NCBI GenBank assembly: GCA_035288785.1
Contig: DATDZF010000027.1
Coordinates: 1 to 41,689 of the forward strand
Origin: Candidatus Norongarragalinales archaeon
GTDB lineage: Archaea > Micrarchaeota > Micrarchaeia > Norongarragalinales > SBBD01
Reading direction: 5' to 3'
Length of the DNA: 41,689 nucleotides
Position numbers and translations under genes: made by a program. How positions within the stretch are numbered: position 1 is the first letter of the stretch; each line of letters opens with the position of its first letter. The notes under the pieces were generated by a model. It did no database searches. It saw only the letters and a list, made by a program, of their open reading frames with translations, and had not been told where the DNA came from. Of the stretch, positions 9,868-35,027 are shown one piece after another.

Positions 9868-9961
9868 AAAATAAGGCGAATGTGGGAAACTGCTTGGGGT
9901 GTGATTGGGATGCCTTCCAAGTGTTTCCAAATTCAGCTTATTTTGCGAGCATTTAATTTTT

Positions 9962-10363: not shown

Positions 10364-10591
10364 AAAAACACCTCGAATGGGATTGAATGGGGGATGTGGA
10401 GCGTATGTCCGCAATGAGCCATTAACCCAAGAATAACCGTTGCTCCATCATTAGGTTGGAAAACCTATTTTAAACCACCCCAATGCATCGCGGGATGGAG
10501 GGGCGCGGAAATATGCCGCAAGAATGCCCCTTCCCAGAGGAAAAAAAATGAGTTTTTAAACCTTCAAGGGAATAAGGGATTGGTGATGTTT

Positions 10592-11077
10592 ATGGCAGAG
10601 GAAGTTTCGCGGTTTCATCAAACTGTAAAGGAACGCATTTCTAGGGGTCATATCACTTTCCAGAATGATCGCATTGATAGATTTCATGAGAAGGCATTAG
10701 CTGCATCCGGGGGCCACATCGAATCCCCGCTTATTGGTCTTGCAAGGAAAATAAAATTTAATGCAGCGCATGTAGATGAGGCAACGGGCGAGGTAAGGTT
10801 AAATGGAAAAATAAACGTCGGCAGGCTATTTCGTAAAGAAGCCGGTATCACTCTGGCCTCAAACGGGAGGGAAATCCGGATAGATGTGGATCTTCCAAAC
10901 GCATATCAGGTTCAGGGACTCCATATTTCTGAGGGTAAAATAGGGACAAGGGCGGAACCTGCGAGGACCACCGATAGGAGTGGAAAGGCAGTTCGGGCAA
11001 ATGACGCCGTTGGCCGATTTATCGAGGCGACACGGATAAAATTCATTATGGCTGCAAAAGGAGCGTTGAAATCCTGA
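10592..11077 (+). CDS. hypothetical protein
   Basis: ORF with GGTGAT 4 nt upstream of the ATG at 10592. No recognisable motif. Confidence 0.4.
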   Translation: MAEEVSRFHQTVKERISRGHITFQNDRIDRFHEKALAASGGHIESPLIGLARKIKFNAAHVDEATGEVRLNGKINVGRLFRKEAGITLASNGREIRIDVDLPNAYQVQGLHISEGKIGTRAEPARTTDRSGKAVRANDAVGRFIEATRIKFIMAAKGALKS

Positions 11078-11141
11078 CCTTAAGCCTTCTTCACATCCAT
11101 TCGACATGCGGTTGGGCCTTATGCCTTCTTCACATCTATTC
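11078..11141. repeat. near-tandem duplication of the 3' end of the PIN-ATPase-KH gene
   Basis: CCTTAAGCCTTCTTCACATCCATTC (11078-11102) against CCTTATGCCTTCTTCACATCTATTC (11117-11141): 23/25 identical, period 39 nt. Confidence 0.75.
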
Positions 11142-16100: not shown

Positions 16101-18654
16101 CCAATTCTTCCTGACAAGCAGGGAAATAAGGGACGGATTGCAGTTCTGCGCAAATGTGCCCTCGGGAGAGAGCGGCTCGCATGCATTCACTATCAGCGCG
16201 CTTAGCCCAATTTCTGATGCCTACGGCAGCGTTGCCGTGAAAGTGCTGGATACGGGGGATTTCGAGACCGATATCGACGGCGCATGCATCATTGTCCATG
16301 ATTATGCAGAGCTATATCCGGTCACCATCACAAACGATGTCGCGGATGGCGATTATGCAGTGACACTTAGGGATAACGAGGCAAATGCGCGTGCGACCCC
16401 TTCGGTGCTCTACAATTTCAAGAAGGGCACAAGCCGCACGGTCTACATCTCCGCGGATCCTGACAATATAGACTACGGGGATTCATACATGCAGCTCGTA
16501 TTGAAGCGCGACGGGTCTGTTGCATTGCAGCAGGATGTTTGCATCGCATCCGCAACCAAGCGGATCGCAAGGAGGGACATCTTCTCGCAGCTTTCGCAGG
16601 GCACCCTGAATTTGCAGGCAGGCGCAAGCGCAAGCACAACCCTGACCATCAGGAACACGGGCACGAGGACAGATGACTATTTCATAAGGGTGCAAACGCC
16701 CCTTAGCGTAAGCATCTCGGAGAGTTCGTTCACATTGGATCCGGAGGAGGAGAAGAAGGTTACGATCAAGGTTTCGGCTTCCGCAACAGAGGTCGCAAAG
16801 CGCTATTCCATCCCAATAAAAATTTATTCCGGAAGGGGACAGGGCGGCGTCATATATGATGGGCCATCGGATGGCGGCTACGGCGGGATCGGGACCGCAT
16901 TTGTGAAATGCGGCAATGGCAGGACCGTTTCATTGCAATGCGATGAGGGCTCCTCGAGCTGCTCTGCAGTTTGCAAATACACCGATACCGGAAGCTACAC
17001 CCTGCAGGCAAATGTGGGCAACGAGGAGTGCAGGGACAACAGCATCCGGGTGATTCCTGAGAATTCGAACGGATGCGCAATTTCAGCGGAATCAGTGAGC
17101 CGGGAAGACACAAACACAATTGTAAAGGTCAGGTACAGCCAATTGCCCCGCGAGCCGACAAACGAGGAAATCCTGATCTCGTGCGGCAATGGCAACAGTG
17201 CAACTGCGGACGATTGCGATGGGCTTTCGGGAACGTGCAGCGCAACATGCAGCTACAGCTCCAAGGGCACATTCACCATAAATGCAAATACGGGCGGGGT
17301 CACGTGCACTCCATCTGAAATCGAGGTAACAGGCGATTCGGAGTTCTGCTCCATCTCATCCCCCGGGCTTGCGGAAGAGGACGACACCGTGACAATAGGC
17401 CTCAAGTACAGGAATGTGTATTTTGGCGGGCAATTCTACCAGAACAGTTATTCTGGCGATACGGCCGATGGGTACTACGACAGCAACGGGATTTTCCGCT
17501 ATTACGACAGCAACGGCAACGGCTACTATGACAGCTACGGGAATTGGCACAGCTACGGCACATACTATTCCGGAAGCGGCGTGCTGTTGAAGACGGAAAA
17601 CCTGGTCGTGATCGTAGGGGGCGGCGGTGCTTCCGGCACAATCACCCCGGGCGATTTGCATCCGGATGCAGTGGAAGTCCGGCGCGTGCTTTCCGCAGAG
17701 CTTCCCTCAAAGGGGAAGGCAAATGTGGCGGCGACATTCAAGAACATGCGCGATTACAAGCTTAAGGACATCGCCCTTCTAGTTGAAGGATTGCCACAGG
17801 GCGTTACGCTTACGCAGGTGGCGCCATTCGAAATCGAGGCCGGTAGCGAAAGGACAATCTATTTCAGGCTGGAGGCAAATGGCGCAAAGGAAGGGGTTTA
17901 CCATCCAACGCTCACCCTCAGGTTTGATTCGCAAAGCGTCCAGAAGGAATTTGAGCTCAAGATTGCGCCGGAAACCGAAATCCTGAAAGCCGAGATAAAA
18001 ATATTGGGAGTCGAATATGCGCAGGAAGGAGGCAGCGCCATCGCCCGCCTTAGCTTTGAGGTAACAAATAAGGAAGGGGGGCAGGTCCAGCTATCGCCGA
18101 TCTTCCGGGACATGCCGCAGAATTGGAGCGCGCAAGTCGATCCTTCCCTTGGCGTCATCAATGCCGGGGAAACGCTTCAATTCAACGCCAACATTACCGC
18201 AAAGGAATACGAGCAGAAGAGCTACACGCTCCTTCTCGAGCTTAGGAGCCCAGATGGAAGGAGGTATTCCGAGCCGGTGGCAATTGAATTCCAGAAGCTT
18301 GGCATTTTCAGCGGCCTGTTCACATTCTTTGGGGCACTAGGGCCGCTGCAGGTGCTGGTGATCCTGGCAATCCTTGCACTCGCGGTATTTGCAGTCACTT
18401 CCCGCGAGAAAGGCAAGGAAAAGGATGAGGATGATGGTGGCCCATCGGAACGCCTAAAGAGCATAAGCGAGGAAATAAGGCCAATGAAGGGGAAACAGAC
18501 AACTTTGCTTGATGAACGCAAGTACAAGAAGAAGGGGGGCGCCTACGAGGCAACCGAGGAGATAGAATCCCCCGAATACATTGAAATGGACGATGCGGAT
18601 GTGACCGACGAGGATGCCCTGAAAACCCCGCCGGAAGACGAGGAAGACGATTAA
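13189..18654 (+). CDS. giant secreted, C-terminally membrane-anchored surface protein (1821 aa): Cys-rich PKD-like modules, BNR/Asp-box domain, CarboxypepD_reg-like domain, CARDB/NEW3-like sandwiches, Tyr-rich tracts
   Basis: Signal peptide MNGRIIGLLALILLAAMITNLNA. Five xxCG[ND]G...GSCxxxCxY...G[TS][FY]T modules. STNGGLSW Asp-box (14458-14481). TLTIRNTGTRTDDY..FTLDPEEEKKVTIKV NEW3/CARDB pattern. TM helix LQVLVILAILALAVFAV followed by an acidic tail. GAGGAGGG SD before the ATG. Confidence 0.85.
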   Translation: MNGRIIGLLALILLAAMITNLNATYPPESCLDKINNDPAYGDPKIDCADRQSGGVGALTCPAGSYHPDACPNGESPFCVPGQDDYDMVYKAGWICPSGANVQLELGEEEYRQMTPESGAISPESYYGDETAESDEIDSSYYYYYDYYEEQTTTQTTTIETTYGESGAGFGSEDGQEGTINGVSYSYPSDMEVADQGIEYPAYEPDFGSGGYEGYNYDESGYNYEGRWHLQQESYFPLCGDGVCSYGEGCYSDCGPLNSYNNYNYNYFDYYDYGYAYGYCYVNSPTYAIAGDRVPIQVVFNGYAPYSVQVDCGDGGSTIAYRNGYYSYGNVMYAYCHYTYEGIFFPSAYASGTSCYSDQIIVRNRGSGGGGGYYYPTPTPTPQTNTGRPMVNLLYPTGGEIFEAGERIGIEWDGTGINNYRVLYSTNGGLSWQVLQADPYYSTSVRWTVPNLDINDLRIKVEGHSATHSLVASDTSGYIEVVGRAAISPTPYPTNYPTPTPGTPECALTAFPSALQEGESAVVTANYYSLARSPNTISIDCGNGQQKNAVDCFGTTGSCAEFCNYQGKGTFTAKAIASGTACAPVQITVSETSAEKCTDGTSFGDCSEQKPKYCDDGILVDRASICGCPSGKIASGNRCIEPFGSCTTAVSPPTVRANERATVSIDYEGIPLGTGTAQVICGNGDLESARCTRASELSGSCTAECVYGEESYYPKKYAVGAKVKGISCSSANVQVSAPSETTGTLLAKVSECVGGDVIEHAKVRIQNNEDFYTDSNGQLKVSLEPGAYNLEVSKPEFNGQSASVQIKKGQISTSEVCLKPAGCSISAELVRVPDTDDSNPVLLYQIRITNNLNSENEISLSYSSAFQIEGDQLVVIGAKESKIVNVLVRAEGAIVGRSYGMVAIKGEGDCAKNIELPISIVGGLSLELQQHDKESFADRKVCFDFLVRNRGENEGVVTLNFEGDFEGEFNVPQFFLTSREIRDGLQFCANVPSGESGSHAFTISALSPISDAYGSVAVKVLDTGDFETDIDGACIIVHDYAELYPVTITNDVADGDYAVTLRDNEANARATPSVLYNFKKGTSRTVYISADPDNIDYGDSYMQLVLKRDGSVALQQDVCIASATKRIARRDIFSQLSQGTLNLQAGASASTTLTIRNTGTRTDDYFIRVQTPLSVSISESSFTLDPEEEKKVTIKVSASATEVAKRYSIPIKIYSGRGQGGVIYDGPSDGGYGGIGTAFVKCGNGRTVSLQCDEGSSSCSAVCKYTDTGSYTLQANVGNEECRDNSIRVIPENSNGCAISAESVSREDTNTIVKVRYSQLPREPTNEEILISCGNGNSATADDCDGLSGTCSATCSYSSKGTFTINANTGGVTCTPSEIEVTGDSEFCSISSPGLAEEDDTVTIGLKYRNVYFGGQFYQNSYSGDTADGYYDSNGIFRYYDSNGNGYYDSYGNWHSYGTYYSGSGVLLKTENLVVIVGGGGASGTITPGDLHPDAVEVRRVLSAELPSKGKANVAATFKNMRDYKLKDIALLVEGLPQGVTLTQVAPFEIEAGSERTIYFRLEANGAKEGVYHPTLTLRFDSQSVQKEFELKIAPETEILKAEIKILGVEYAQEGGSAIARLSFEVTNKEGGQVQLSPIFRDMPQNWSAQVDPSLGVINAGETLQFNANITAKEYEQKSYTLLLELRSPDGRRYSEPVAIEFQKLGIFSGLFTFFGALGPLQVLVILAILALAVFAVTSREKGKEKDEDDGGPSERLKSISEEIRPMKGKQTTLLDERKYKKKGGAYEATEEIESPEYIEMDDADVTDEDALKTPPEDEEDD

Positions 18655-18665
18655 GGCGATCTGCA

Positions 18666-21600
18666 ATGCAATTGAGAATAATTTTGCTGGCCCTACTGGT
18701 ATTGCCCCTTGCGAGTGCATCGGCAATAATCCTGGATTCGACAGGGCAGGAGGCATGCGCAACGGACCAGCTGGTAATATCAGGTATATTGCAGAATGCC
18801 AAGTCCGTTGCAGACAAATACGATTTGAGCGTCACAAGCAAGGATGGGCTTTCGGCATTCGTTACCCCCAGTTTGGAAGTGGACGCATACGGAATTGCGA
18901 GATTCGACTTGTTCCTCTCGCCCGTTTGCCTCGATGCGGGAAGTTACGATTACGAAATTACCGCGGGCAGCGTCCGGGGCGAGGTAGTTTCTGAAAAAGG
19001 CAGCATCCAAATCAATAGCTGCGAGCTCATGGAGCTGCGCATCTCCCAGACGAAAACCGAGGTGTGCAACGGCGAATCAGCAAGCTTTGCGATTTCCGTG
19101 AAGAACCTTGGCAATGAGGAGCAGAACTTCACCTTGGGAACGGATTTGGAGGCGGGAACGTATACGCTCTCGAAGGATAAATTCCTTTTAAGGCCGGGTG
19201 CAGAGGGCAAGGCAACACTCAACCTGAATATACCCGCCAACCTTTATGCGCAGGGGATGCTCACATTCAAGGTTAGGTCGGAAAGCACCTACAGCTGCGG
19301 GAGCAACAGCCGCGAAGTGCAAGCTTCAATAAATGTCCGTAGATGCGATGGCGCGAAACTGACCGCCTTGCAGGATTTGCAGGTGCAAGCCAATACCAAA
19401 TCGGTTTGGAACGTCTTCATTGACAACCAGAAGACGCCAGATTCCTATGGCCTAGTACTGGAATGCGCGGATTTTGCTGCATTGCCAGTTGAACGGGTAG
19501 AGCTGGGGGAGCTTGAAAGCGCAAACATCAATATCCCAATTGCGCCAAGGCTCGAGGATGTGGGGGAATACGAATGCAGGCTTACCGCGACCTCGGAGAA
19601 ATTCAGCAAATCATATACCACAAATCTCAAGCTGAAAGTGGTGCAGGAATATGCGGTGAAACTTGAGGCACCTTCGCAAATCAAGGTGTGCATGGGGGAT
19701 GACGCTTTGATCAAGGTAAAACTATTGAATGCGGGCAAGGCGAACAAGTACGCTCTGGCGGCTCCGGGAGGGGAAGTGGCGCTTTCAACAGGCGAAATTA
19801 ATGCGGCTGAAAATTCCACGAATGAATTTGGCCTGGCAATCAAGGGCAACGCACTGGATGCGGGAGTGAACACGGTCGAAGTGGCCGTGAGGAGCCCGTA
19901 TGCCGCCGCAAAAAGCTCCACAAGGATAATCGTGGAGGATTGCTACAATTCCGCGCTTTCCGTATCGCCAAGGACAATTGAAATGTGCGCGGGCAACGGT
20001 GGCGACAATGTGGTTGTTAGGGCGGTAAATAAGGGAACCAGGGAGGATTCCTATGTGCTCTTTGTTGCAAGCAAACCGGGATTCGATACGCAGTTCTCTT
20101 CACAGGAAGCATTCCGGCTCGGGCCAGGGGAAAGCAAGGAAATCGAGTTGAAAGTGAATGCAAAGGAGGATGCTAAATCAGGTAATTACGAAATCGAGGT
20201 AAATAGCCGGGGAACTAATAGCGAGGAAAGCGCAAGCTTTTCTGTGAATGTGCTTCCGGTTAGCGTTTGCCATTCGCTAAAATTGGAGGTCGATGGGAAT
20301 TCACGGAGGACGGGCTCTGGCATTGGGAAGAGCTTTAGGATCAGCATAACCAACAATGGGCGGTTCAAGGAAAGGGCGGAATTGATATTGAAGGAAAAGC
20401 CCGCCTGGGCGTACATTACCCCCTCGTTCATAGAAGTGCTTCCGGGGACAAAGGAGGAAGCATTGATATATTTTGCACCGCCCCTAAACGAGGCGCTTGG
20501 CAATTACCCAATTGTAGTGGAGGCGCGGGGGAAATACCTAGAGCAAACTCTTGGCCTTAATGTCGAGGTAATCGCGCTGGAGGGTGGCGAAGGGCAGGAG
20601 GCAAAAATTGACCTTTCAAACGTGAAAATTCCAACAGATCTTGAAAGGGAAACTGAAACACCCATTGAAATAGACATATACAATTCAGGGGACGTTGACC
20701 TGCATAATGCAAGCATCCTATTCTCGGAGGCAGTATCAATTGTCGGGCAAAAGCCCTTTGATGTGGAGGCGGGGCAGAGAAAGAAGATTGCGCTTGTCGT
20801 TACAATTGGAAAGGAAGCCCCCGAGGATGTAATGAAAATTAAATTGGGAGTCTATGCGGCAGAAGGGTCCGCGGAAAAGGAGGTCACCATCAAGGCAGTT
20901 GAAAGCCGCCTTGATGTGGCCCAGAAGGAATCAAGGGAAGCCGAAGGCGGCTTTGATATCGCACTTGCCTTGAAAAATAACGGCGAGGAGGCCCTTAAGC
21001 TTAAGGCGCATTCGCTGGAAAATGCGAATTATTCCGAAACGGAAATCGGCTTGCAGCCTGGGGAGGAGAAGGAAATTAGGGTCAAGCTGCAGGAGGGGCG
21101 CGAAACGCTTGTGTTCGAGGACGAATTAAGCGGGAAAATATACCGGAAGAGGATAGAAGTAAGCGAAACGGGGGATATCACGGGCCTTTTCGTGGCATCG
21201 ATGGGCAGGGTGCTGCCGTTTCTGGTTGCGATAATTGCCGGCGCAATCGCGCTTTACCTGATAGTATCGAGGCGGGGAAAGATCGCAGAAAGGCTCGATG
21301 GAAAGAAGGGAGAGCTTGAGGGCGAGGATGAAAAGGGGCCTGAATTTTACGAGGAATCCGAAAGCGAGCCGGACGTTGCCGAGGAGAAAAGGGAGGAAGC
21401 GGAAGAGAACACTGCATTGGACAGGAAAGGGGAGGGGGATGGAATTGATGAGGGCGCGGATGGCTTGGAGGACGACATTGACAGGCATCACATTTTCTCG
21501 GCGGTTGCAGCGGGGAAAAAAGCGACTGTTAGAAAAAAGGCACCAGCGGCAGCGGAAAAGAAGGAAGCAAGCAAGGAGGGCAATAAAAAAACCATTGGTA

Positions 21601-21764
21601 AAATGAAACAAAAGCCATTGGTAAAAAGCCGGAAAGCCAGTAAGCAAAGCGCAGGCGGGGGGAGGAAAAACGCCTCAACGCAAACGGAAGGGCGGAGCCC
21701 GCACCCGATGCAGGATTACCACATCTATTCCGGGCCTGAAGCGAGATGGCATACCAATCAATAA
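18666..21764 (+). CDS. giant secreted, C-terminally anchored surface protein 2 (1032 aa), COG1470-like CARDB/NEW3 repeats with a long charged cytoplasmic tail
   Basis: Starts 12 nt after the stop of the previous gene. Signal peptide MQLRIILLALLVLPLASASA. Repeated units such as FAISVKNLGNEEQNFTL, VVVRAVNKGTREDSYVL..LGPGESKEIELKV and FRISITNNGRFKERAEL. TM LPFLVAIIAGAIALYLIV, then about 230 aa of E/K-rich tail. Confidence 0.85.
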   Translation: MQLRIILLALLVLPLASASAIILDSTGQEACATDQLVISGILQNAKSVADKYDLSVTSKDGLSAFVTPSLEVDAYGIARFDLFLSPVCLDAGSYDYEITAGSVRGEVVSEKGSIQINSCELMELRISQTKTEVCNGESASFAISVKNLGNEEQNFTLGTDLEAGTYTLSKDKFLLRPGAEGKATLNLNIPANLYAQGMLTFKVRSESTYSCGSNSREVQASINVRRCDGAKLTALQDLQVQANTKSVWNVFIDNQKTPDSYGLVLECADFAALPVERVELGELESANINIPIAPRLEDVGEYECRLTATSEKFSKSYTTNLKLKVVQEYAVKLEAPSQIKVCMGDDALIKVKLLNAGKANKYALAAPGGEVALSTGEINAAENSTNEFGLAIKGNALDAGVNTVEVAVRSPYAAAKSSTRIIVEDCYNSALSVSPRTIEMCAGNGGDNVVVRAVNKGTREDSYVLFVASKPGFDTQFSSQEAFRLGPGESKEIELKVNAKEDAKSGNYEIEVNSRGTNSEESASFSVNVLPVSVCHSLKLEVDGNSRRTGSGIGKSFRISITNNGRFKERAELILKEKPAWAYITPSFIEVLPGTKEEALIYFAPPLNEALGNYPIVVEARGKYLEQTLGLNVEVIALEGGEGQEAKIDLSNVKIPTDLERETETPIEIDIYNSGDVDLHNASILFSEAVSIVGQKPFDVEAGQRKKIALVVTIGKEAPEDVMKIKLGVYAAEGSAEKEVTIKAVESRLDVAQKESREAEGGFDIALALKNNGEEALKLKAHSLENANYSETEIGLQPGEEKEIRVKLQEGRETLVFEDELSGKIYRKRIEVSETGDITGLFVASMGRVLPFLVAIIAGAIALYLIVSRRGKIAERLDGKKGELEGEDEKGPEFYEESESEPDVAEEKREEAEENTALDRKGEGDGIDEGADGLEDDIDRHHIFSAVAAGKKATVRKKAPAAAEKKEASKEGNKKTIGKMKQKPLVKSRKASKQSAGGGRKNASTQTEGRSPHPMQDYHIYSGPEARWHTNQ

Positions 21765-22502: not shown

Positions 22503-22751
22503 TCAAAAGCGGTAAGCTGTTTTTCTGTGCTCCAAGAAAGCAAAATAAATCGTGTCGCCTTTTTGGGAATAAATTATCCTGAAAACCTCGATCCGCTCGC
22601 TCCGGTAATTCTGCATTGGTGCATGCAGGGGCTTTCCTAATTCGGGCATTTGAAGGATTTTATCCATTCTCCTTAAAATTAGCCGTTGTTGGTTCTTATC
22701 CAATTTTTTCAGCGAATTTTCAAATTCCTTAGTCAGAACGAACGGGTGCAT
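22503..22751 (-). CDS. RelE/ParE-family type II toxin
   Basis: About 82 aa. Pattern LKKLDKNQQRLILRRMDKILQMPELGKPLHAPMQNYRSERIEVFRIIYSQKGDTIYFAFLEHRKTAY fits RelE/ParE (..gk.L.g.l.g.ys.R.g.yRiiY.....i.i..i.hRk.aY). Confidence 0.75.
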   Translation of the reverse strand: MHPFVLTKEFENSLKKLDKNQQRLILRRMDKILQMPELGKPLHAPMQNYRSERIEVFRIIYSQKGDTIYFAFLEHRKTAYRF

Positions 22752-22953
22752 CAAGCTTCAGCTCCCTCCGAAGATGCCGGAGATGCCTGTACTTTTTGCC
22801 TCCACGCTGTTCCACTTCCCTAACCGCACGCCAGAATTCGGGCTTAGAAAACAGTTCCAGATCCTCCAAATAGCCCGCGAATTCACCCTTCAGGCGTTTT
22901 GCCTCAAGCATCATTTTTCTTCCGTAAGCGTCAGTCTTTTCGAATTTATACAT
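22729..22953 (-). CDS. putative cognate antitoxin (unclassified)
   Basis: Small ORF directly upstream of the toxin and overlapping it by 23 nt. No recognisable RHH/AbrB/Phd motif. Start chosen at the ATG at 22953, because the longer form to 23010 would overlap the recJ-like stop. Confidence 0.45.
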   Translation of the reverse strand: MYKFEKTDAYGRKMMLEAKRLKGEFAGYLEDLELFSKPEFWRAVREVEQRGGKKYRHLRHLRRELKLDAPVRSD

Positions 22954-22999
22954 ACCTAACACTACATATGGTTTCTGCTGTTTGCAATTATAAGCCTTG

Positions 23000-24580
23000 C
23001 TAAATTCCAATCTGCTGCTTGATTGCCTTTTTTGCTGTCAAAAGGAATTTCCTTATTGCATCATCTGTATTCGGGAAAGATGCGCCGGCCGCAACCGAAT
23101 GGCCTCCCCCGAACCCTCCAGCTTCCTTGCTTGAATTGCCCATCACTTCCCCTAAATCAAGCCCCTTTTCAACTAGCCCCCTCCAGGCCCTTGATGAGCC
23201 CTTTACCTGGTTGCTCTCATCGACTGCGAGGGCGATGATGGGCTTTGTGCGCTCAATCAAGCCGGAATTATAGTAACTTCCGGCAACCGAGCCGATTACC
23301 GTGTCGGGGATTTCCTTCCTTGCATCAAGGAGGTAAAATGCTCCCATGTCCTCCGTGAATTTTTTCGCGAAGGAGATTGATTTGGAGATTTCCATGCGGT
23401 GCGCAAGCAGAAGGGAATGCGCCTCCTCGTAAGCGCCGGGCTCGTTCATGCAAAGCGAAATCCCCACATCATGCCTGCCGCCCCTGCCGCACGCATTGAG
23501 GAGGGATGAAAATTCATATGCATCGTAAAGCTCCGAATCGTTTTTCTCATGTGGGAACAGATACACCTCCCCAAGCATTGACTTGATTACCTCCTCGGCG
23601 ATGCGTTTCTCATAGCAATAGTACATAAGGCCCCCAATCAGCCTTATCCTATCCTCTTTAGGGAGGTCATAGTATCGCAGCCATTTCCGCTGGCCGTTTT
23701 CCTCCCGGAAGAGCGGGATGCCGGTTTTTTTCAGGAAGAGGGCACAGCCCTTCGCATTTCCCGTGAGCCCCGGAAGGAACGGCTCCGAGCAGAAATTCAG
23801 GAAGCTTACAAGGCTGCGCGAAACGCGCCCAAATAAGCGCAAATCAGAGATTACATCAACAACCTTGAATTTCCGTGCCTCTTGGAGCATCAAATAATTC
23901 AGCCCCCTAAGGCCCCTTATGTCCTGCACATCCCCAACTGCGCCGATGATCCCAAGCTGCGCCATTCTTTTTGCACATTCGACCGGGCTGCATTGCGAGA
24001 ACACGAAATAAGCCGCAGAGGAACTGCAAAGGTAGAATGACCCATCGATGTTGAAATTGTGGCAGTTTATTATCGTGAATGCATCGGACCTATTCGCAAT
24101 TGTTTCTGGAGAATGGTGGTCTATTTGCAGGATGCTTTTCCCGGCTAGTGCAATTTCATTTATCTTGCTGAGGAAGCCGGTGCCGATGTCCACGAATATC
24201 ACGTACTTGCACGGGTCGTTTCTGATATTTGCGATGATTGCATCGTCCATTTTCTTGACGGTAAGCATCCTGAAGGGGGTTTTGCGCTCCTTTAGGGCAA
24301 GCGCAACAATGGAGCCGGAGGCGAGCCCGTCGCAATCGAAATGGTTCACGATAAGGGCGTCCTTGAAGGTATCCAGGGTCCGCCGGCCTTCCCTTGAGGC
24401 AAAGGAGATGAAATCGGCGATGTCCTTTTCAGAAAGCCCCCCGGGGGCCGGGTTCTCCTGGGGATTGATTGATTGGCGCTCAAGGGGCTTTCCGCCAGGG
24501 GAACTGCCCGGCGCCTTAGCCGCTTTTCCCTCAAGCTCCTCGTGCGCATCTTCGAGGAAATCGAGAATTTTCCGGTTCAT
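23000..24580 (-). CDS. RecJ-like DHH/DHHA1 phosphoesterase (archaeal RecJ/GAN-type nuclease)
   Basis: DHH motif I NHFDCDGLASG, motif II VIFVDIGTG, motif III LQIDHHSP, and DHHA1 motif GGFGGGHSVAAGASF. About 70-aa disordered N-terminal extension. Confidence 0.85.
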   Translation of the reverse strand: MNRKILDFLEDAHEELEGKAAKAPGSSPGGKPLERQSINPQENPAPGGLSEKDIADFISFASREGRRTLDTFKDALIVNHFDCDGLASGSIVALALKERKTPFRMLTVKKMDDAIIANIRNDPCKYVIFVDIGTGFLSKINEIALAGKSILQIDHHSPETIANRSDAFTIINCHNFNIDGSFYLCSSSAAYFVFSQCSPVECAKRMAQLGIIGAVGDVQDIRGLRGLNYLMLQEARKFKVVDVISDLRLFGRVSRSLVSFLNFCSEPFLPGLTGNAKGCALFLKKTGIPLFREENGQRKWLRYYDLPKEDRIRLIGGLMYYCYEKRIAEEVIKSMLGEVYLFPHEKNDSELYDAYEFSSLLNACGRGGRHDVGISLCMNEPGAYEEAHSLLLAHRMEISKSISFAKKFTEDMGAFYLLDARKEIPDTVIGSVAGSYYNSGLIERTKPIIALAVDESNQVKGSSRAWRGLVEKGLDLGEVMGNSSKEAGGFGGGHSVAAGASFPNTDDAIRKFLLTAKKAIKQQIGI

Positions 24581-24696
24581 AATTCAGGCCCAGCATGAAA
24601 GGAAAAGAGAATGTTAATAAATAATAGGCTGATGAGTAATATCAAGGGGGCATATAGGGCAGCAATCCTGATTTTGGAACAGAAGAGGTGGGCGTT

Positions 24697-25461
24697 ATGG
24701 CAGTCGAATGGCTTGTGCTGGGTTTTTTCATCATCATATTTGCGTTCATGAGCATCAAGATAGTAGATCAGTATGAACGCGCGGTAAAATTCCGGCTGGG
24801 GAAGTACGTTGGAACCCTTGAGCCGGGGCTCAATTTCGTCATCCCCGTCATTGAGAGGATCGTGATGGTGGACATTAGGCTGCAGACAATAGACATCCCC
24901 GCGCAGCAGGTGATCACGAAGGACAACGTTCCCGTGCAGGTGAATGGCGTCATATATTTCAAGGTCAGCAGCCCTGAAATTGCCATAATCAAGATCCAGA
25001 ATTTCGGCTATGCGATCTCGCAGTATGCCCAAACCGCCCTAAAGGATGTTGTGGGCGGCATGAGCCTTGACCAGCTTTTGGCCGAGCGGGACGAGATTGG
25101 CAAGGCAATCGAGCAGCTTGTGGAGAAGGAAACCAAGGATTGGGGGATGGAAGTCGAGGTCATAAAGATGCAGGATATCGACATGCCCGAGGAATTGAAA
25201 CGGATAATGTCAAGGCAGGCGGCAGCTGAAAGGGAGAAGCGCGCAAACATCACAAAATCCGAGGGAGATAAGCTTGCAGCAGTCAATCTTGCAGCCGCAG
25301 CAAAGCTGATGGCGGAATCGCCCGGGGCAATGCAGCTCCGGACGCTTCAGACAATTGACGGCCTTGGGCCAACTCCCAGCAACACGGTGGTGATGTTCCC
25401 GATAGATATCTTAGAAACATTGAGGTCGTTCTCGGATTGGATGAAGGCAAAGAAGAAATAA
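24697..25461 (+). CDS. SPFH/Band-7 stomatin-like protein
   Basis: N-terminal TM helix, then IKIVDQYERAVKFRLGKYVGTLEPGLNFVIPVIERIVMVDIRLQTIDIPAQQVITKDNVPVQVNGVIYFKV. GAGGTGG SD 6 nt before the ATG at 24697. Confidence 0.9.
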   Translation: MAVEWLVLGFFIIIFAFMSIKIVDQYERAVKFRLGKYVGTLEPGLNFVIPVIERIVMVDIRLQTIDIPAQQVITKDNVPVQVNGVIYFKVSSPEIAIIKIQNFGYAISQYAQTALKDVVGGMSLDQLLAERDEIGKAIEQLVEKETKDWGMEVEVIKMQDIDMPEELKRIMSRQAAAEREKRANITKSEGDKLAAVNLAAAAKLMAESPGAMQLRTLQTIDGLGPTPSNTVVMFPIDILETLRSFSDWMKAKKK

Positions 25462-25715: not shown

Positions 25716-26789
25716 ATGGAGGGATTGATCAGAAGCGTAGAGACTATTGACGGGGAGGAAACACTTTCGAAAGGGCTCAAGCGGCTGGCCGATAGCGAGA
25801 TGCTGGTGGTCACGAGGAATGGCAAGTACGCAGGAGAGCTAAGGGCGGATATGCTATTGCGGTTCAAGGCGGACGCCGATGTGGAGAAAATCAGGAAGGT
25901 GGCACGCAAGGGCAGCATAGTGTCCGAAAGGGATGCGGGCAAGTTCGGCACGCTATTTGAGAAATTCTCAAAATCCGGGATGCGCTGGCTTGTGGTGGTT
26001 TCAGCAATGGGCAAGCCCGTTGGGATGGTGCATGCACAGGACTTGCTCAGGTCAGTTGCGGATTCGGTGAAAGGGCAGGACGTGCGCGAGTGCATGGAGA
26101 AGGTAATAACGGTAGATGCGGGAACGCCATCAGACAAGGCGGAGGAATTGATGGTGAAGAGCAATGTCAGGGAGCTTGCTGTTTTCGATGGGGGAAAATT
26201 TGCGGGCGTCCTAACGGCAAGGGATATAGCGGTAAAGATCAAGCCTTACATGCGAAAGAAGCTGCACACGATCAAGCCGCGGGAAATGATGGATGTTGAA
26301 AAGGAGCCGGTCCGGAGCATCCTCACGCCGGAATTCGAGATAAGGAAGGCGCAGCTTGGAATGGGAATCGGGGAAGCCCTAAGGGCTGCGGATTTCGAGG
26401 AGGCCTACATTTTCGAGGGCCAGAAATTGAAGGGGCGGCTTTCCTATTACAAGATATTGAAGGGCCTTGAGCTCGTGGAGCCGGCGCATATAGAAGTATC
26501 GGGGCTCACTTCCGAGGAAAATATGTTCAAGGAGTCAATATTCGAGGAATGCGCCTTGCTCCTTAGGAAGTTCGGGAAGGGCGGGCGCATCCACTTGCAC
26601 ATCAAAAGCTCCCGCAAGGGAAAGGAAAAGAAGATTTTCGAGATACACGGCCGGCTAGAAATCGGTAAGATGAGCTTTGTATGCACGACCCCGGAAATAC
26701 AAGGCCACAAGGAAAACTGGGATTTGGGGATGGCCGTTGCAGAAGTGCTCGCCGAGCTGAAAAAATCATACCTGAAAAGGAAGGGGTAA
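25716..26789 (+). CDS. four-CBS-motif protein with C-terminal HPF/RaiA (S30AE)-like domain
   Basis: Four CBS-like units (e.g. VITVDAGTPSDKAEELMVKSNVRELAVFDGGKFAGVLTARDIA). The C-terminal 100 aa has a beta-alpha-beta-beta-beta-alpha pattern resembling HPF/YfiA. GAGGTGG SD before the ATG at 25716. The CDS call is firm; the C-terminal domain assignment is tentative. Confidence 0.75.
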   Translation: MEGLIRSVETIDGEETLSKGLKRLADSEMLVVTRNGKYAGELRADMLLRFKADADVEKIRKVARKGSIVSERDAGKFGTLFEKFSKSGMRWLVVVSAMGKPVGMVHAQDLLRSVADSVKGQDVRECMEKVITVDAGTPSDKAEELMVKSNVRELAVFDGGKFAGVLTARDIAVKIKPYMRKKLHTIKPREMMDVEKEPVRSILTPEFEIRKAQLGMGIGEALRAADFEEAYIFEGQKLKGRLSYYKILKGLELVEPAHIEVSGLTSEENMFKESIFEECALLLRKFGKGGRIHLHIKSSRKGKEKKIFEIHGRLEIGKMSFVCTTPEIQGHKENWDLGMAVAEVLAELKKSYLKRKG

Positions 26790-26846
26790 AACGCCTGGCC
26801 GCCCTCCTCGCAAAAACGGTAATCCATAGAGGCAGAGTGGTTGCTG

Positions 26847-28109
26847 ATGATCGACTTACTTCGTAAACTATTCGCAGGGGGGAAAAATGAGAAGAAGCCC
26901 CAAGAGCCCCTTCCAAAGGAAATGCGCCTTAGCCCTAAGGATTTGGAGCCCTACCTCCAAGCCGAGCTCGACTTAAGGCTAAAAGGATTCTACGGCAAGG
27001 CAGACGGGAGGATCAAGGCGATAATTGCGCTCTTCAAGGAGATCGAGGCGGCCGCATTGGAATTTTCCAAAAAGACCCTGAGCGTCGAAAACCCGCAGTA
27101 TGAAAAAATTGCAAAGCAGATGAAGGAAAACTACTTTTCGAGGATCCCAAAAATTCTGGGGGGGGTAAAAAGGCCCGAAAAAATGGACTACGAATCCATA
27201 ATGAAATTCCATGGCGAGACGCTGCAAGCGATGCTGCAAATAACGAAAATAACCTCCGACAATAGGTACCTCGTCATATTCTACAAGGAGGAATTCGGAA
27301 AGCTAGGCGGCCCAATCAAGGCGCTTTCTGAGGAGGAGGACGCCCTCGGAAAGCTGGTGGCGGAAAATTCCCCCACATACGAAAGCGCAGGGCGAATTGG
27401 TAGCAGCATTCGCACGGCACATGCATTGATCGCAGAAATTGAAGAAAAAAACCTAAGAAAAGCGGGCCTGGAAGCGGGATTGGAGGAATCGGCGGGCAGG
27501 TACCGGAAATCCGAGGAAGAATCAGAGATGGAAAAAGCGATCATCCTTGATCGGCGCAAAAAGGAGCTGGAAGGAATAATATCCGGCTACAAGGGCGGAA
27601 TTGCAGCGCTCATCCAGCCTATGGAAAGGCTGCTTAGGAAGTTTGAGAAGGCATCATCGGATAGGAAACTTGGGAAAACCGCGGATGCATATCTAAAGGA
27701 CCACCTGGCAGCTGCCAGGAGCGAGGGGATTGAGCTTTCCGAACTTAGGGCGCTTTGCACCGAGATTGGGAAATTGCTTGTGGAAAATAAAATCGAGGAA
27801 GAAGCGAGGGATAAGAATAAGCATTTGGGGATAATCCGCAGGATCCTTGCTGGCGAGGTAAGGGAGCTCATGGAAAGGCTTGGGAAGGCGGAAAGGGAAC
27901 TCGAGGGGGTCGAGGTGCAAATACGGGGATCGCATGCCCTGCTGGAAGGATTCGCCCGCTCAAAAAGGGCTATTTCTGATAGCGAAACAAAGGTTGCAAA
28001 CGCATCCGCAGAAATTGCTGCCGACACGAAGGCATTAATGGAATTGGCAGTTGGAATTGAGAAGGAGGCGGGCGGGTTTTTGGGTGCAAGACTGACTCTA
28101 GATATTTAA
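26847..28109 (+). CDS. hypothetical all-alpha coiled-coil protein (about 420 aa)
   Basis: Long uninterrupted ORF with heptad-like E/K/L/A-rich composition. No catalytic motif recognised. Confidence 0.55.
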   Translation: MIDLLRKLFAGGKNEKKPQEPLPKEMRLSPKDLEPYLQAELDLRLKGFYGKADGRIKAIIALFKEIEAAALEFSKKTLSVENPQYEKIAKQMKENYFSRIPKILGGVKRPEKMDYESIMKFHGETLQAMLQITKITSDNRYLVIFYKEEFGKLGGPIKALSEEEDALGKLVAENSPTYESAGRIGSSIRTAHALIAEIEEKNLRKAGLEAGLEESAGRYRKSEEESEMEKAIILDRRKKELEGIISGYKGGIAALIQPMERLLRKFEKASSDRKLGKTADAYLKDHLAAARSEGIELSELRALCTEIGKLLVENKIEEEARDKNKHLGIIRRILAGEVRELMERLGKAERELEGVEVQIRGSHALLEGFARSKRAISDSETKVANASAEIAADTKALMELAVGIEKEAGGFLGARLTLDI

Positions 28110-28221: not shown

Positions 28222-28734
28222 ATGGATTTTGCCAGCATCGCATTCGGAGGGTTCTGGCGAAGGCTGCTTGCACTCATCATCGACAGCTTCATCGTGGGGG
28301 TGCCGTTTTGGATGATTGCAATTTTGCGCGGCAATTTCCTTGACAGCCTGGCATGGCTCCAACAGGCAATGCTGGCCTCCGACATCGCCTATTACGTTTA
28401 TTTTGAGGGAATGCAGGGGGCCACTTTGGGCAAGCGCGCCGTGGGGTTGGCGCTGGTTAAAGAGGATGGCACGTACCCGGTTGGATGGCAGACGGCGCTG
28501 TTTAGGTATTTTGCAAGGACGGCATCGTTTTTAATCCTTGGAATCGGCGTGCTAATGGTTGCATTCAGTGCAAAAAAGCAGGGCCTCCATGATAGGCTGG
28601 CAAGGACCCTTGTTGTAGCGTCTGGAAGCCTCGAAGGGATAATCATGGAACGGGAAGCGTCGAGTGCGCCACTTGCCGTTGGGAAAATGAAGGGAAGGAG
28701 AGTTGTGCACGCAAAGGCAAAACGGGGAAAGTGA
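28222..28734 (+). CDS. RDD-family membrane protein
   Basis: FWRRLLALIIDSFIVGVPFWMIA ... LGKRAVGLALVKEDG ... KKQGLHDRLARTLVV gives the R..D..D spacing and TM layout of the RDD domain. Confidence 0.8.
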   Translation: MDFASIAFGGFWRRLLALIIDSFIVGVPFWMIAILRGNFLDSLAWLQQAMLASDIAYYVYFEGMQGATLGKRAVGLALVKEDGTYPVGWQTALFRYFARTASFLILGIGVLMVAFSAKKQGLHDRLARTLVVASGSLEGIIMEREASSAPLAVGKMKGRRVVHAKAKRGK

Positions 28735-28735
28735 A

Positions 28736-29125
28736 ATGGACGAAAAGGGGCTCGTTTATGCATTGGCATTTGTTGGGATCGTGACCCTTGCGCTTCAGAC
28801 ATACGTTGCATCGCAGAATGCGCAAAAGATCCGGGAGGCGCTTCCGCCACTTCTTGAATCCGCGCTTTGCTACAGGGAGGGGGGCTCTGTGCTGCTATCC
28901 CTGCCGGCAAATGTGGAAAACTGCAGGAAGATTGAGAAAATATACCGCAACTTTGGGTCGAACCTTTGCGATTTTTTCCCAAATAGGCGCGGGAGCTGCG
29001 AAAAAATAGCCGAAATAGCTGATGAGCGCTACATGGATTGCATTGGAGGCTTGTTCAGCAATGAATACAAATATAGCGAGGGCTATCCGCAGGCCGAGCA
29101 ATATTGCAAGGAATTCGAGGGTTAG
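28736..29125 (+). CDS. small N-terminally anchored Cys-containing exported protein
   Basis: The ATG lies 1 nt after the RDD stop. TM LVYALAFVGIVTLALQTYV is followed by a 6-Cys soluble part. No known motif. Confidence 0.45.
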   Translation: MDEKGLVYALAFVGIVTLALQTYVASQNAQKIREALPPLLESALCYREGGSVLLSLPANVENCRKIEKIYRNFGSNLCDFFPNRRGSCEKIAEIADERYMDCIGGLFSNEYKYSEGYPQAEQYCKEFEG

Positions 29126-29127
29126 GA

Positions 29128-30012
29128 ATGGCTTTGAAAAACGGGCTGAAAATCAAGGGGGCAGATGCAAACGCCAAAGAAGCTATAAGCGGGGAATTCA
29201 GCTTCGAGGAATGCATAATTGGCCCATTCAAGCTCGTGAGGGAAGAGCCAAAAACCATGCTTCCAAGCGTCCTGGAGTGGATTCCGATGCTCATAATCGC
29301 AGTTGTGCTTGGGGATTTCCTCACGAAATACACTTATCTTGCAGGCAAATTCGCAAGCGCAGTGCAGAGCAACGACCCAACCATCCTATTCTCGGTCTTT
29401 AACGACTTGCTGGGCGCATTCATCAAGTACCTCCCTGATTTCGTGCTGATCGGCCTTTTATACGTGCTGATTTCAAATTTCCTGGCACTAGCATACTCCC
29501 ATATGGTCATGCAAAAACGCAGTGGGAAAGGAATTTTAATTGCGGAGGCATTTGGCGCCGCGAAAGGCCGCCTTCCGGGATTGCTTGTTGCCAACTTGCT
29601 GTTCACACTGACCGCATGCCTGGCGGGCATGGCATTCCTGCTCCTAATCATGCTCAGCAGCCTCCTTGGGATATTCGGGATTTTAGTTGCAATCATGGCT
29701 TTCATCATGCTGATTGTTGCCGCTTTTGTCCTGGGAATTGCAGGCTGGGTCCTCTCACCTATGATTATGATCGGCGGGAAGGGGGGGATGGAAGCATTTG
29801 CGGAGTCTATCCCATTTGCCTGGAAGAACATAAAGAGGGGGATAGCGGTAGTATTGGTAGCATTCGTGGTATCCGTGATCCTCGATCAGCTTGTAGCCGC
29901 ATTTACAGGAATACCATACGCCGGCCTTGCTGTTGCGAGCATGATTGGGCTTGCGGTCAATTCCTGGAAGGCGATGGTGCCCGCAGAATTCTACAGCGAA
30001 TCCGTGGAATGA
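29128..30012 (+). CDS. polytopic membrane protein (DUF-type, 5-6 TM)
   Basis: The ATG lies 2 nt after the previous stop. Several long hydrophobic segments (LLVANLLFTLTACLAGMAFLLLIML, GILVAIMAFIMLIVAAFVLGIAGWVL, etc.). Confidence 0.6.
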   Translation: MALKNGLKIKGADANAKEAISGEFSFEECIIGPFKLVREEPKTMLPSVLEWIPMLIIAVVLGDFLTKYTYLAGKFASAVQSNDPTILFSVFNDLLGAFIKYLPDFVLIGLLYVLISNFLALAYSHMVMQKRSGKGILIAEAFGAAKGRLPGLLVANLLFTLTACLAGMAFLLLIMLSSLLGIFGILVAIMAFIMLIVAAFVLGIAGWVLSPMIMIGGKGGMEAFAESIPFAWKNIKRGIAVVLVAFVVSVILDQLVAAFTGIPYAGLAVASMIGLAVNSWKAMVPAEFYSESVE

Positions 30013-32558: not shown

Positions 32559-35027
32559 TTAGCCCCTTACGGTGTCCCTGTTCTCGTTGAGCCAGTTGAT
32601 CAACGCATTGCCGGCTTCCTTGGTGTCCGCTGCAGAATAGCCTGCAACGACCAGCTTGGTTGAGCCAAACACCTGCACGATCGGTTGGTCACCGGACTTC
32701 AGGTCAACTCCCGCCGCTTTTGCGACAGTGTTCACGATCTGTCCACCAACGACAACCAGGTTTGCAGTGTCGGACGCTTCAGAGTCCAGCACCACTAGCG
32801 GGTTAGACGCAGTGTTCAGTTCGGTCACAACAGCCGCATCCTTCACTGAAGGCTCCAGGAGGTCAATGCCGGTTACGTCGCCAGCAGAGCCGCCGGTCAC
32901 CTGCGCAGTGATGGAGTCCACCATCAAGGAGTAGCCGCCGCCTATTGTGTAGGGGTCGCCCTCCTTCAGGTTGACTTTTGCATCAGAGCCAGTCCCGCTT
33001 GATCCGGATGCGCCGGATGTCAGCGTGAATCTTGCCTGAGCAACCTTCTTCGCGTAGCTGATGGTCGCCGATGACGAGCCAATGCCGGTGAAGATGTTGC
33101 CTCTGCGCGTGGTGTACTTGGGTTCCTTCGATGCGATGTTTGCCACCGTAGTGCCGTTATACCCTGCGGGATTGCTGTTGTCATAGCCGATCTTGTCAAC
33201 TGTAGTTGAGCCGATCGTGTTGACGAACTGGTCGAGGGTCACATCGTATAGGAGGTTCAGGTGGAAGTTGGTTGCAATTGCTGCCGAAGAGCCGTTGTTG
33301 GTCTCCGTCAACTCTGGGATTGCCACTAGAACGTTGGTTATGCCTCCTGAGTGGTTGTACGAGGTGTTGACAGACAGCACCGCATTCTCCTCCGAAGAGT
33401 AGTAATACGTGAGCTGCCCTGCGGTTGTGCTTGCATTGGAGTACGCGCCTGCGGCGGTTATGTAGAATACTTCGCCTGCCGGATGCGTTGTGTTGCCCGT
33501 TGCTTGCTCAAGCAATATGTATGCGTCGTTGACGGACCTGCTTCCGAACTGGAAGGCATTGCTCTTTCCGGAAACTATGCTGAGCACGTTTGAGGAAATC
33601 GCTGCGCCGTCATCGAGCGTCATTGCATATGACTTCAGGATGGAGAACGTCAGGGTGTCGTAGTCTACAGTTTCCAATCCGAGGAAGTTGAGCTTGTATC
33701 CTGGCATTCCCTTGATTACCTCAATGGATTCGCCCGGGTTCAACGTCTGGGAGATTGGGGTCTTGTAGGTCTGGTCGAGGTTGTTGTAGAGCTGGATTTT
33801 CGAGATTGCATCGGTAGAGCCAACGACCGCACTTATGATGTTGGAATACCAATTCTTGTGGGAGTCGCCGCCCGAAACTTCTGCACCGTTTGTCAGCACT
33901 AGCTGGCTCGAGTACAGCGAGACGTCGGCAATTCCTTGCTTTGCGAATGCGCCGGGGAAGACCTTGTTGACCTTCACCACGATGTTGTTCGCTTCTGCGA
34001 TGGTTGCGCTGTCGCTTTCTCCGAGGTATACCCTCTTGATGAGCACTCCATCCTTGTCGGAAACGTCGAACTGCGCCCTCTGTGGGGAGAACGCTGACAA
34101 GTCCTTCAGGGTGATGGTAAAGCCATCCTGGGTTGTAACGGATTCGTCGATGTTGAATGACTCCTTCCTGGTGATTTGCTTACCAAGCGTCACGGACGTG
34201 ATGGATCCGAACGTCGGGTTTGTATAGTCGAAGATGGTCCAAGTGTCGCCAAGGAACGTGATCTCGACGTTGCCCTTCTTGAGCATGTCGGAATCAGTGG
34301 TGCATGCGCCAGCGGACGTGTTCTTCGAGGTGTCCAAGCAAAGCGGAATTGGATCGGAAAATACGACCTCATAGCCGGTCTTTGCATACTGTGCCTGCAC
34401 AGCCTTTGCGGTTTCGTCATACTTCACGTATGCGAACGCATAGACTTTCTGCTCCTCCTTGGTGTTGGTTGAGCCCTTCGGGTAAGTGATCTTACCATCA
34501 GAGGGCATGCCTGCCGCGGGTGCGACGATGGACGTTAAGTCCTTCGTGATTACCTTGGGGCCGAGGTTGGAACCAAATGAGGTATTTCCGGAACCGAATC
34601 TGGATGTTTGCGCCGTGCTCCTGTTGCTGTCAACGGAGAAGTCGAGGTCGTCCTCGATGTACGCCTTCATCTCGTATGCGGTTGCCGGGTTCACTCCTGG
34701 CGTAGTTACTGTCAAGCCCACTTCCTTGTCCGAAAGTTCCCCTCCGGAGCCGGAAGATCCGAGCTTGTCGGTGTTCAATACTTGCACTGTCTGCGTCTTG
34801 TACGCAAGGTTACCCAGGACTGCCGCGATATTTGCTCCAACCACGACATCTACTGGCTGCGCCTTGCCTCCAATCACAACCTTCACTTGGGGCTCCCCGG
34901 CTGAGAAGAAGGGGAATGTTCCAACGCCGGCTGTGTCGACGCTGACTGCAGCGCCCACAAACGCCGCGCCCATCATGGCTGCGCCGGTTGCGATTGCCGC
35001 AATTCTCTTCACATTCATACTTTTCAT
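32559..35027 (-). CDS. S-layer protein (Methanococcales-type N- and C-terminal regions)
   Basis: Signal/N-terminus MKSMNVKRIAAIATGAAMMGAAFVGAAVS. T/S/N/G/V-rich with only 2 Cys. C-terminal VVGGQIVNTVAKAAGVDLKSGD..LVVAGYSAADTKEAGNALINWL. AGGTGA SD 5 nt before the ATG, long leader and a strong pyrimidine terminator. Confidence 0.75.
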   Translation of the reverse strand: MKSMNVKRIAAIATGAAMMGAAFVGAAVSVDTAGVGTFPFFSAGEPQVKVVIGGKAQPVDVVVGANIAAVLGNLAYKTQTVQVLNTDKLGSSGSGGELSDKEVGLTVTTPGVNPATAYEMKAYIEDDLDFSVDSNRSTAQTSRFGSGNTSFGSNLGPKVITKDLTSIVAPAAGMPSDGKITYPKGSTNTKEEQKVYAFAYVKYDETAKAVQAQYAKTGYEVVFSDPIPLCLDTSKNTSAGACTTDSDMLKKGNVEITFLGDTWTIFDYTNPTFGSITSVTLGKQITRKESFNIDESVTTQDGFTITLKDLSAFSPQRAQFDVSDKDGVLIKRVYLGESDSATIAEANNIVVKVNKVFPGAFAKQGIADVSLYSSQLVLTNGAEVSGGDSHKNWYSNIISAVVGSTDAISKIQLYNNLDQTYKTPISQTLNPGESIEVIKGMPGYKLNFLGLETVDYDTLTFSILKSYAMTLDDGAAISSNVLSIVSGKSNAFQFGSRSVNDAYILLEQATGNTTHPAGEVFYITAAGAYSNASTTAGQLTYYYSSEENAVLSVNTSYNHSGGITNVLVAIPELTETNNGSSAAIATNFHLNLLYDVTLDQFVNTIGSTTVDKIGYDNSNPAGYNGTTVANIASKEPKYTTRRGNIFTGIGSSSATISYAKKVAQARFTLTSGASGSSGTGSDAKVNLKEGDPYTIGGGYSLMVDSITAQVTGGSAGDVTGIDLLEPSVKDAAVVTELNTASNPLVVLDSEASDTANLVVVGGQIVNTVAKAAGVDLKSGDQPIVQVFGSTKLVVAGYSAADTKEAGNALINWLNENRDTVRG

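Follow-up and report, generated by a model that had tools for sequence, protein, structure and literature searches.

Does the genome of a Candidatus Norongarragalinales archaeon encode a ribosome hibernation factor built from CBS motifs and an HPF-like domain? The question is raised by an open reading frame (ORF) on contig DATDZF010000027.1 (GenBank assembly GCA_035288785.1), which was analysed over its positions 1 to 41,689 on the forward strand (the 41.7-kb window). The original prediction, made by eye from the letters, described the product as four CBS units followed by a domain resembling HPF/RaiA (S30AE), and proposed a nucleotide-gated hibernation factor. As detailed below, the encoded 357-aa protein is probably (at roughly 0.85) a Micrarchaeota (DPANN) ortholog of Hib/AHA, the ribosome hibernation factor known from archaea, a reading that rests on sequence and fold comparisons.

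The gene (hib/AHA-type, hereafter hib; 25716-26789, + strand, stop codon included) starts with the ATG at 25716, ends with the TAA at 26787-26789 and encodes 357 aa, arranged as a CBS tetrad and a C-terminal HPF/RaiA-like domain. Its translation is identical to the C-terminal string given in the original prediction. The ATG was preferred to an alternative GTG at 25707, as the homologs begin with MEGLI or MDGLI. Nine close homologs were found (48-66% identity), the C-terminal ~100 residues being the best-conserved part among them, and every named one is labelled 'CBS domain-containing protein' and originates from Candidatus Micrarchaeota metagenome-assembled genomes (MAGs). Because of these nine homologs and of the same gene order in six Micrarchaeota MAGs, 25716-26789 is not a chance ORF. 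The whole protein is basic (isoelectric point 9.3).

Homology to a characterised member of the Hib/AHA family was detected over the full length. The profile of 35 full-length fusion proteins matched the PDB chain 9sr9_H (392 aa, labelled 'Dehydrogenase') with an E-value of 1.2e-48 in one collinear stretch, in which profile positions 7-367 were aligned with chain residues 11-374, spanning all four CBS motifs and the C-terminal domain. The entries 9SR9-9SRF correspond to Pyrococcus abyssi Hib (Pa-Hib, 392 aa, Q9UYR4) (10.1101/2025.10.11.676729). According to the same report (Madru et al., October 2025), Hib consists of four CBS domains and an HPF/RaiA domain and is found in ~47% of archaeal genomes; in 70S structures obtained by cryo-electron microscopy (cryo-EM), the C-terminal domain occupies the small-subunit active sites, and three placements on the large subunit, including one at the peptidyl-transferase centre (PTC), were seen for the CBS module. 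Deletion of Thermococcus barophilus Hib (F0LKU5) delayed regrowth and lowered the 70S pools (10.1101/2025.10.11.676729). The hibernation function that had been proposed for the 357-aa protein thus agrees with its collinearity with a protein of the same architecture, established as a hibernation factor by cryo-EM and genetics (10.1101/2025.10.11.676729).

AHA (Souza et al., February 2026), studied as Haloferax volcanii HVO_2384 (D4GWN2), has the Hib architecture and a knock-out phenotype. On the 70S ribosome (cryo-EM), its HPF domain lies on the 30S subunit and its CBS tetrad on the 50S subunit, with 'loop 3' of CBS3 in the PTC; it binds two adenosine monophosphates (AMPs), at sites 3 and 4. 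The accompanying survey recovered 3,160 homologs in 17 phyla, and one of its PSI-BLAST seeds was the Micrarchaeota protein A0A7D6BN20 of Fermentimicrarchaeum limneticum (10.64898/2026.02.22.707292). Hib and AHA are one family under two names, for which experiments have shown that the HPF domain blocks the 30S decoding site, that the CBS tetrad blocks the A/P/PTC region of the 50S subunit and that AMP is bound. With this family reported from 17 phyla and from ~47% of archaeal genomes, the description of S30AE factors as classically bacterial or plastid is outdated. The fusion of four CBS motifs with an HPF domain was already described in 2025-26 and is no novelty of the Norongarragalinales genome.

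The full-length fusion profile also matched PDB chain 9l96_a (also 9l98, 9l9c and 9l9v), a 406-aa 'CBS domain-containing protein', with an E-value of 3.6e-37. This match spans the CBS tetrad and runs into the first HPF-like strand. The sequence of the chain is acidic and haloarchaeal-looking, and 9l96_a is probably another solved Hib/AHA homolog.

Like Hib, the 357-aa protein has a long loop with an I-K-P motif after the CBS3 helix and an extended β2-β3 hairpin in addition to the collinear match; it differs from Pa-Hib in its length (357 aa versus 392 aa), in an extra PEIQGHK insertion and in the replacement of the CBS4 Asp by Lys. AHA was compared by its published description: it is likewise a fusion of four CBS motifs with an HPF domain, and it differs in binding AMP at both sites 3 and 4, whereas the canonical motif is present only at site 3 of the 357-aa protein. 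These local peculiarities (the 7-residue insertion and the loss of the CBS4 Asp) are minor.

The HPF/RaiA-like domain (residues 256-357; 26481-26786, + strand) is supported by a domain model, Foldseek, profile search and hhalign. Its predicted elements are a β-strand at 258-262, an α-helix at 268-285, β-strands at 291-301, 305-316 and 319-324 and an α-helix at 337-356, which is the β-α-β-β-β-α order that had been read by eye. When the domain was modelled alone, the predicted local distance difference test score (pLDDT) was 85.7. The 25 best PDB matches of this model in Foldseek were all HPF-family chains (RaiA, HPF, YfiA/pY, plastid PSRP1, RafH and MPY; template modelling score, TM, 0.51-0.72), including RaiA 8rd8_D (E-value 3.7e-4), Staphylococcus aureus HPF 5ngm, PSRP1 5mmj_y (TM 0.72), Escherichia coli HPF 2rql and YfiA 4v8i, and the first unrelated match had a probability of 0.28 and a TM of 0.27. 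The fold of the domain, predicted and not solved, is therefore that of the S30AE/HPF-RaiA proteins and of Hib/AHA, and the structural search that had been suggested as a check of the HPF assignment came out in its favour.

Sequence homology to HPF was assessed with progressively larger alignments, and the signal emerged only once the alignment had been enlarged with matches from a search of representative proteins. For this, an exhaustive profile search with the window-clade profile was run over 1.8 billion representative proteins, and 48 proteins were obtained at an E-value of 1e-3 or below. About 30 of the 48 share the architecture of four CBS motifs followed by a C-terminal domain (355-430 aa); some 17 others are short (95-183 aa), most of them standalone domains and some of them fragments or partial CBS fusions. 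All named representatives, fusion and standalone forms alike, are from Micrarchaeota, including Norongarragalinales. One of the matches, P0042, is an 893-aa repeat protein and was excluded as a false positive. Further homologue searches with the C-terminal-domain and full-length fusion alignments gave 4 and 11 matches and added almost nothing.

With the enlarged alignment (53 domains), hhalign against an HPF alignment gave a probability of 95.7% over 92 columns; the values were 89.4% for the fusion domains only and 96.5% for the short non-fusion proteins only, and the controls (20 column-shuffled and one reversed HPF alignment) did not exceed 1.0%. A 36-sequence C-terminal profile was searched against all PDB sequences, and 12 of its 13 matches were HPF/RaiA chains (best E-value 2.1e-4; four matches at 1.3e-3 or below).

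The standalone Micrarchaeota relatives, which matched the window-clade profile at E-values of 1e-22 to 1e-4, connect the domain to curated families: PF02482 matched eight of ten standalone proteins (E-values 5.6e-5 to 0.03; 15.6-24.2 bits, for a gathering score of 23.7), P0055 being the only one above the gathering score (24.2 bits), and TIGR00741 (yfiA) matched two (E-values 2e-7 and 2.5e-6; 28-31 bits, for a cut-off of 40.9). Some standalone cluster members are named RaiA in IMG. Through family hidden Markov models, the C-terminal domain of the 357-aa protein is thus linked to PF02482 and TIGR00741 transitively only, at the level of sequence. Together with the Foldseek, hhalign and PDB-profile results, this link upholds the HPF/RaiA (S30AE)-like domain of the original prediction. 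Standalone HPF/RaiA-like proteins have been reported mostly in DPANN and Nitrososphaerales (10.1101/2025.10.11.676729). The standalone Micrarchaeota proteins (P0038-P0056) carry a basic N-terminal extension of ~20 residues (e.g. MVKRLLKKFYAKAKG...) before the S-G-L strand, an extension that bacterial HPF lacks.

With bacterial and plastid HPF, RaiA (YfiA, pY) and PSRP1 (PF02482, S30AE), the domain shares its fold, an element-by-element alignment and the basic end of the last helix. It differs from them in being fused to a CBS tetrad, in carrying archaeal-type insertions, in lacking the long-HPF dimerisation domain and in being too diverged for a direct Pfam or NCBIfam match. A long basic β2-β3 hairpin (residues 291-316, tip SRKGKEKK; 26586-26663, + strand) is formed by the model strands 291-301 and 305-316; it has a net charge of +5, and K301, G302, K306, H311, G312 and R313 are invariant among the close homologs. 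In position, it matches the archaeal-specific β14-β15 insertion of Hib, which contacts uS12 (10.1101/2025.10.11.676729). A 7-residue insertion (P326-K332, PEIQGHK; 26691-26711, + strand) lies between β4 and the last helix and is lineage-specific: most Micrarchaeota fusion proteins, though not P0049 and P0054, have it, and it is missing in bacterial HPF, in Pa-Hib and in the standalone HPF-like proteins of Micrarchaeota. H331 within the insertion is invariant, and W335, just after it, is conserved in at least 90% of the 35 fusion proteins; residues 329-334 have a pLDDT below 50.

The CBS tetrad (residues 1-250; 25716-26465, + strand) is supported by Pfam CBS, model secondary structure and Foldseek. 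PF00571 (CBS) matched the protein at an E-value of 2.7e-17, scored as three stretches, and the full-length AlphaFold2 model, built on the close-homolog alignment (mean pLDDT 82.8), contains four β-α-β-β-α units (residues ~1-50, 57-118, 121-175 and 196-250). When the whole model was compared with the PDB using Foldseek, ~270-300 columns were aligned to four-CBS proteins (3ddj, 3kh5, AMPK-gamma, Sri and Dri) at E-values of 1e-14 to 1e-10; the proteins matched include SSO3205, MJ1225 and AMPK-gamma (E-values of 1e-14 to 1e-9) and the ribosome-bound archaeal factors SriA-D (9znf, 9zng and 9zni) and Dri (9e6q and 9e7f). The protein therefore has, as claimed from the letters, four tandem CBS motifs (two Bateman modules) at its N-terminus, as Hib/AHA do.

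SriA-D/ARC-P, ARC-A and Dri are archaeal CBS-tetrad ribosome inhibitors (10.64898/2026.01.19.700200; 10.1101/2024.11.12.623245; 10.64898/2026.01.19.700304), and residues 1-250 find some of their best matches, in fold and in sequence, in the tetrads of these factors. These matches cover the CBS part only: in Sri/ARC, the tetrad is without an HPF domain, and Dri consists of two fused tetrads, whereas the 357-aa protein combines one tetrad with an HPF-like domain and belongs to neither group. AMPK gamma subunit, MJ1225 and SSO3205 share the four-CBS disc fold and differ in having no HPF domain; AMPK-gamma acts inside a kinase heterotrimer.

The best-conserved candidate adenine-nucleotide site is the CBS3 ribose/phosphate motif G164-V-L-T167-A-R-D170 (26205-26225, + strand). 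It follows the canonical G-x-x-T-x-x-D pattern, with G in 35/35, S or T in 33/35 and D in 33/35 of the fusion proteins; in published homologs, AMP/ATP is bound where CBS3 and CBS4 meet. The motifs of CBS1 and CBS2 are degenerate, leaving CBS3 as the only site with a canonical motif. In CBS4 (G240-R-L-S243-Y-Y-K246; 26433-26453, + strand), Lys replaces the ribose-binding Asp in the Micrarchaeota clade, and this column holds D in 15, K in 8 and N in 5 of the 35 fusion proteins. The CBS3 helix is followed by an extended basic loop (residues 175-199, IKPYMRKKLHTIKPREMMDVEKEPV; 26238-26312, + strand), a candidate counterpart of 'loop 3' of AHA/Hib. This loop is disordered in the AlphaFold2 model (pLDDT below 50 at residues 181-191), and the net charge of residues 172-200 is +5. 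K174, K176, P177, Y178 and K182 are invariant in the close homolog set (K-x-K-P-Y), conservation of a K-[VI]-x-P motif extends to the set of 35 fusion proteins, and Pa-Hib has FIKPRFKAQY where the loop aligns.

By homology with P. abyssi Hib and H. volcanii AHA, we infer ribosome binding, a role for the loop and nucleotide binding, with a possible regulatory effect of the nucleotide, as follows. The HPF/RaiA-like domain (256-357) would sit in the small subunit's mRNA channel and its A/P decoding region, the CBS tetrad (1-250) would cover the A/P tRNA sites by docking on the large subunit, and the basic post-CBS3 loop (175-199) may reach the peptidyl-transferase centre. Idle 70S ribosomes would thereby be silenced and shielded from dissociation and degradation. 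The CBS3 site (G164-T167-D170) is expected to bind an adenine nucleotide, most likely AMP; Hib's N-terminal domain binds AMP with a dissociation constant of 12 μM, more tightly than ADP or ATP and at a ratio of ~1:1 (10.1101/2025.10.11.676729). Of the nucleotide gating in the original prediction, the binding of AMP, ADP and ATP by the homologs is in agreement, but the gating itself is an unproven hypothesis, likewise for the characterised homologs.

The gene neighbourhood was compared with six related Micrarchaeota loci (L001-L006), which were found with a narrower alignment. The order in the six MAGs is: dCTP deaminase, RecJ/DHH (-), SPFH, hib, 422-aa gene, GalT/HIT and orf356 (-). In the window, the SPFH/stomatin gene (24688-25461, + strand; Pfam Band_7, E-value 1.8e-42) is directly upstream of hib (254-bp gap), with syntenic copies in L001, L003 and L004. 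The 422-aa gene (26841-28109, + strand), described as coiled-coil in the original prediction, is directly downstream (51-bp gap); its product had no Pfam or NCBIfam family match, and it adjoins the hib homolog in all six loci. The identity across loci is 47-60% for hib, 33-42% for the 422-aa gene and 82-90% for SPFH: hib and the 422-aa gene evolve faster than their neighbours. This synteny is weak evidence for a functional link, because the six genomes are close relatives and the order may be inherited.

The window differs from the six syntenic loci by two insertions. Downstream of the 422-aa gene, 28222-30012 (+ strand) contains an RDD-family gene (28222-28734, + strand), a 140-aa ORF and a 302-aa multi-pass membrane ORF, for which no tblastn match was found in any of the six loci. 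In these loci, the GalT/HIT gene stands almost directly after the 422-aa gene, and 28222-30012 is an apparent insertion of ~2 kb. The RDD cluster, having no counterpart in the six loci, is therefore not a conserved neighbour of hib; of the neighbours named originally, the stomatin gene upstream was retained and the RDD cluster was not. The second insertion, at 22503-23010 (- strand), consists of an 82-aa ParE-family toxin ORF (PF05016, E-value 1.8e-6) that overlaps an upstream 93-aa putative antitoxin ORF. This ParE-type pair lies between the dCTP deaminase and RecJ/DHH genes, which are ~40-100 bp apart in L001 and L004, so that the pair resembles an inserted toxin-antitoxin module particular to the window genome.

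Elsewhere in the window, the regions 13189-21764 (+ strand) and 32559-35027 (- strand) encode three probable cell-surface proteins: two very large ORFs (1821 and 1032 aa) with Ig-like/FixG_C, CarboxypepD_reg and NPCBM_assoc domains, and an 821-aa protein that matches PF05124, an S-layer family. A β-CASP/metallo-β-lactamase RNase, probably aCPSF-like, is encoded at 8524-10095 (- strand), and a protein with PIN, ATPase (T2SSE/AAA) and KH domains at 11119-12831 (- strand); these RNA-processing genes (8524-12831) are not obviously tied to hib. A second standalone HPF paralog and further CBS-tetrad genes were looked for in the 41.7-kb window and none was found, nor were tRNA genes or Rfam families at gathering score.

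Several observations weigh against the assignment to Hib/AHA. When the C-terminal domain was scanned directly with Pfam and NCBIfam, no PF02482/HPF match was obtained (Pfam found nothing in the last 100-130 residues of the protein), and the domain does not reach the curated thresholds of PF02482 and TIGR00741. An 8-sequence C-terminal profile returned only noise from the PDB sequences and 0.7% in hhalign against five HPF sequences. The profile comparison with S30AE was divided in its outcome, negative in the direct scan and positive in hhalign and the PDB profile with the enlarged alignment. The HPF reference alignment used for hhalign was entered by hand and cross-checked in part (its E. coli sequence agrees closely with one PDB HPF chain), and no more than 8-9 sequences, all closely related, underlie the structure models. 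Helix α1 of the HPF-like domain is acidic, CBS4 is without the ribose-binding Asp (Lys246 instead), and AMP or ATP had no clear effect on Hib-ribosome binding (10.1101/2025.10.11.676729). Finally, the C-terminal profile alone matched the Pa-Hib C-terminal domain weakly (~12 bits); the full-length match is thus carried mainly by the CBS tetrad and by collinearity, with the Micrarchaeota clade as a divergent branch of the family.

Two other explanations were weighed in this light. The protein could be a CBS regulator whose C-terminal domain merely converged on a small α/β fold (dsRBD-like, ACT or ferredoxin-like) and binds no ribosome, as the lack of a direct family match would allow and as some double-stranded-RNA-binding domain (dsRBD) structures far down the Foldseek list might suggest (probability 0.3-0.8, TM 0.26-0.42). 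Convergence is nevertheless very improbable, given that the top 25 fold matches are exclusively HPF-family chains, that both the profile-sequence and the profile-profile comparisons match HPF significantly and have clean controls, and that PF02482 and TIGR00741 are linked via intermediates and Hib directly. The protein could also be a diverged Hib paralog or derivative that kept the fold and changed its role in Micrarchaeota, for instance as a 30S-only binder, with altered nucleotide sensing, or tied to the SPFH and 422-aa genes; the lineage-specific insertion would then, like the lost CBS4 site, be a trace of that change. An insertion with an invariant H331 and a near-invariant W335 that Pa-Hib, bacterial HPF and the standalone forms lack, the Lys in CBS4, the faster evolution of hib relative to SPFH with the fast-evolving 422-aa gene always next to it, and the weak C-terminal match to Pa-Hib are all in line with such a change. 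Against these, the collinear Hib match and the conservation of both the CBS3 site and loop 3 point to the Hib mode of action, Pa-Hib too binds one nucleotide per molecule (10.1101/2025.10.11.676729), and the shared gene order of six closely related genomes may be simply inherited. A changed role is for these reasons unlikely, if less so than convergence, and the protein is best read as a Hib/AHA ortholog; the ORF, its conservation, the predicted folds of its domains and its homology to HPF and Hib are established by the present analysis.

The by-eye reading of this locus recovered a real remote homology that is missed by the current Pfam and NCBIfam models, and 'CBS domain-containing protein' is still the only label that the protein and its relatives carry in public records. 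As read here, a DPANN (Micrarchaeota) ortholog with small lineage differences would join a family that was established from work on Thermococcales and haloarchaea in 2025-26. It is a long shot that the Micrarchaeota Hib clade forms a functionally distinct sub-type, marked by the His/Trp insertion, the lost site 4 and the persistent linkage to the SPFH and 422-aa genes; if it does, these features and neighbours might serve, for instance, to hold hibernating ribosomes at the membrane of these host-dependent cells or to regulate them there.

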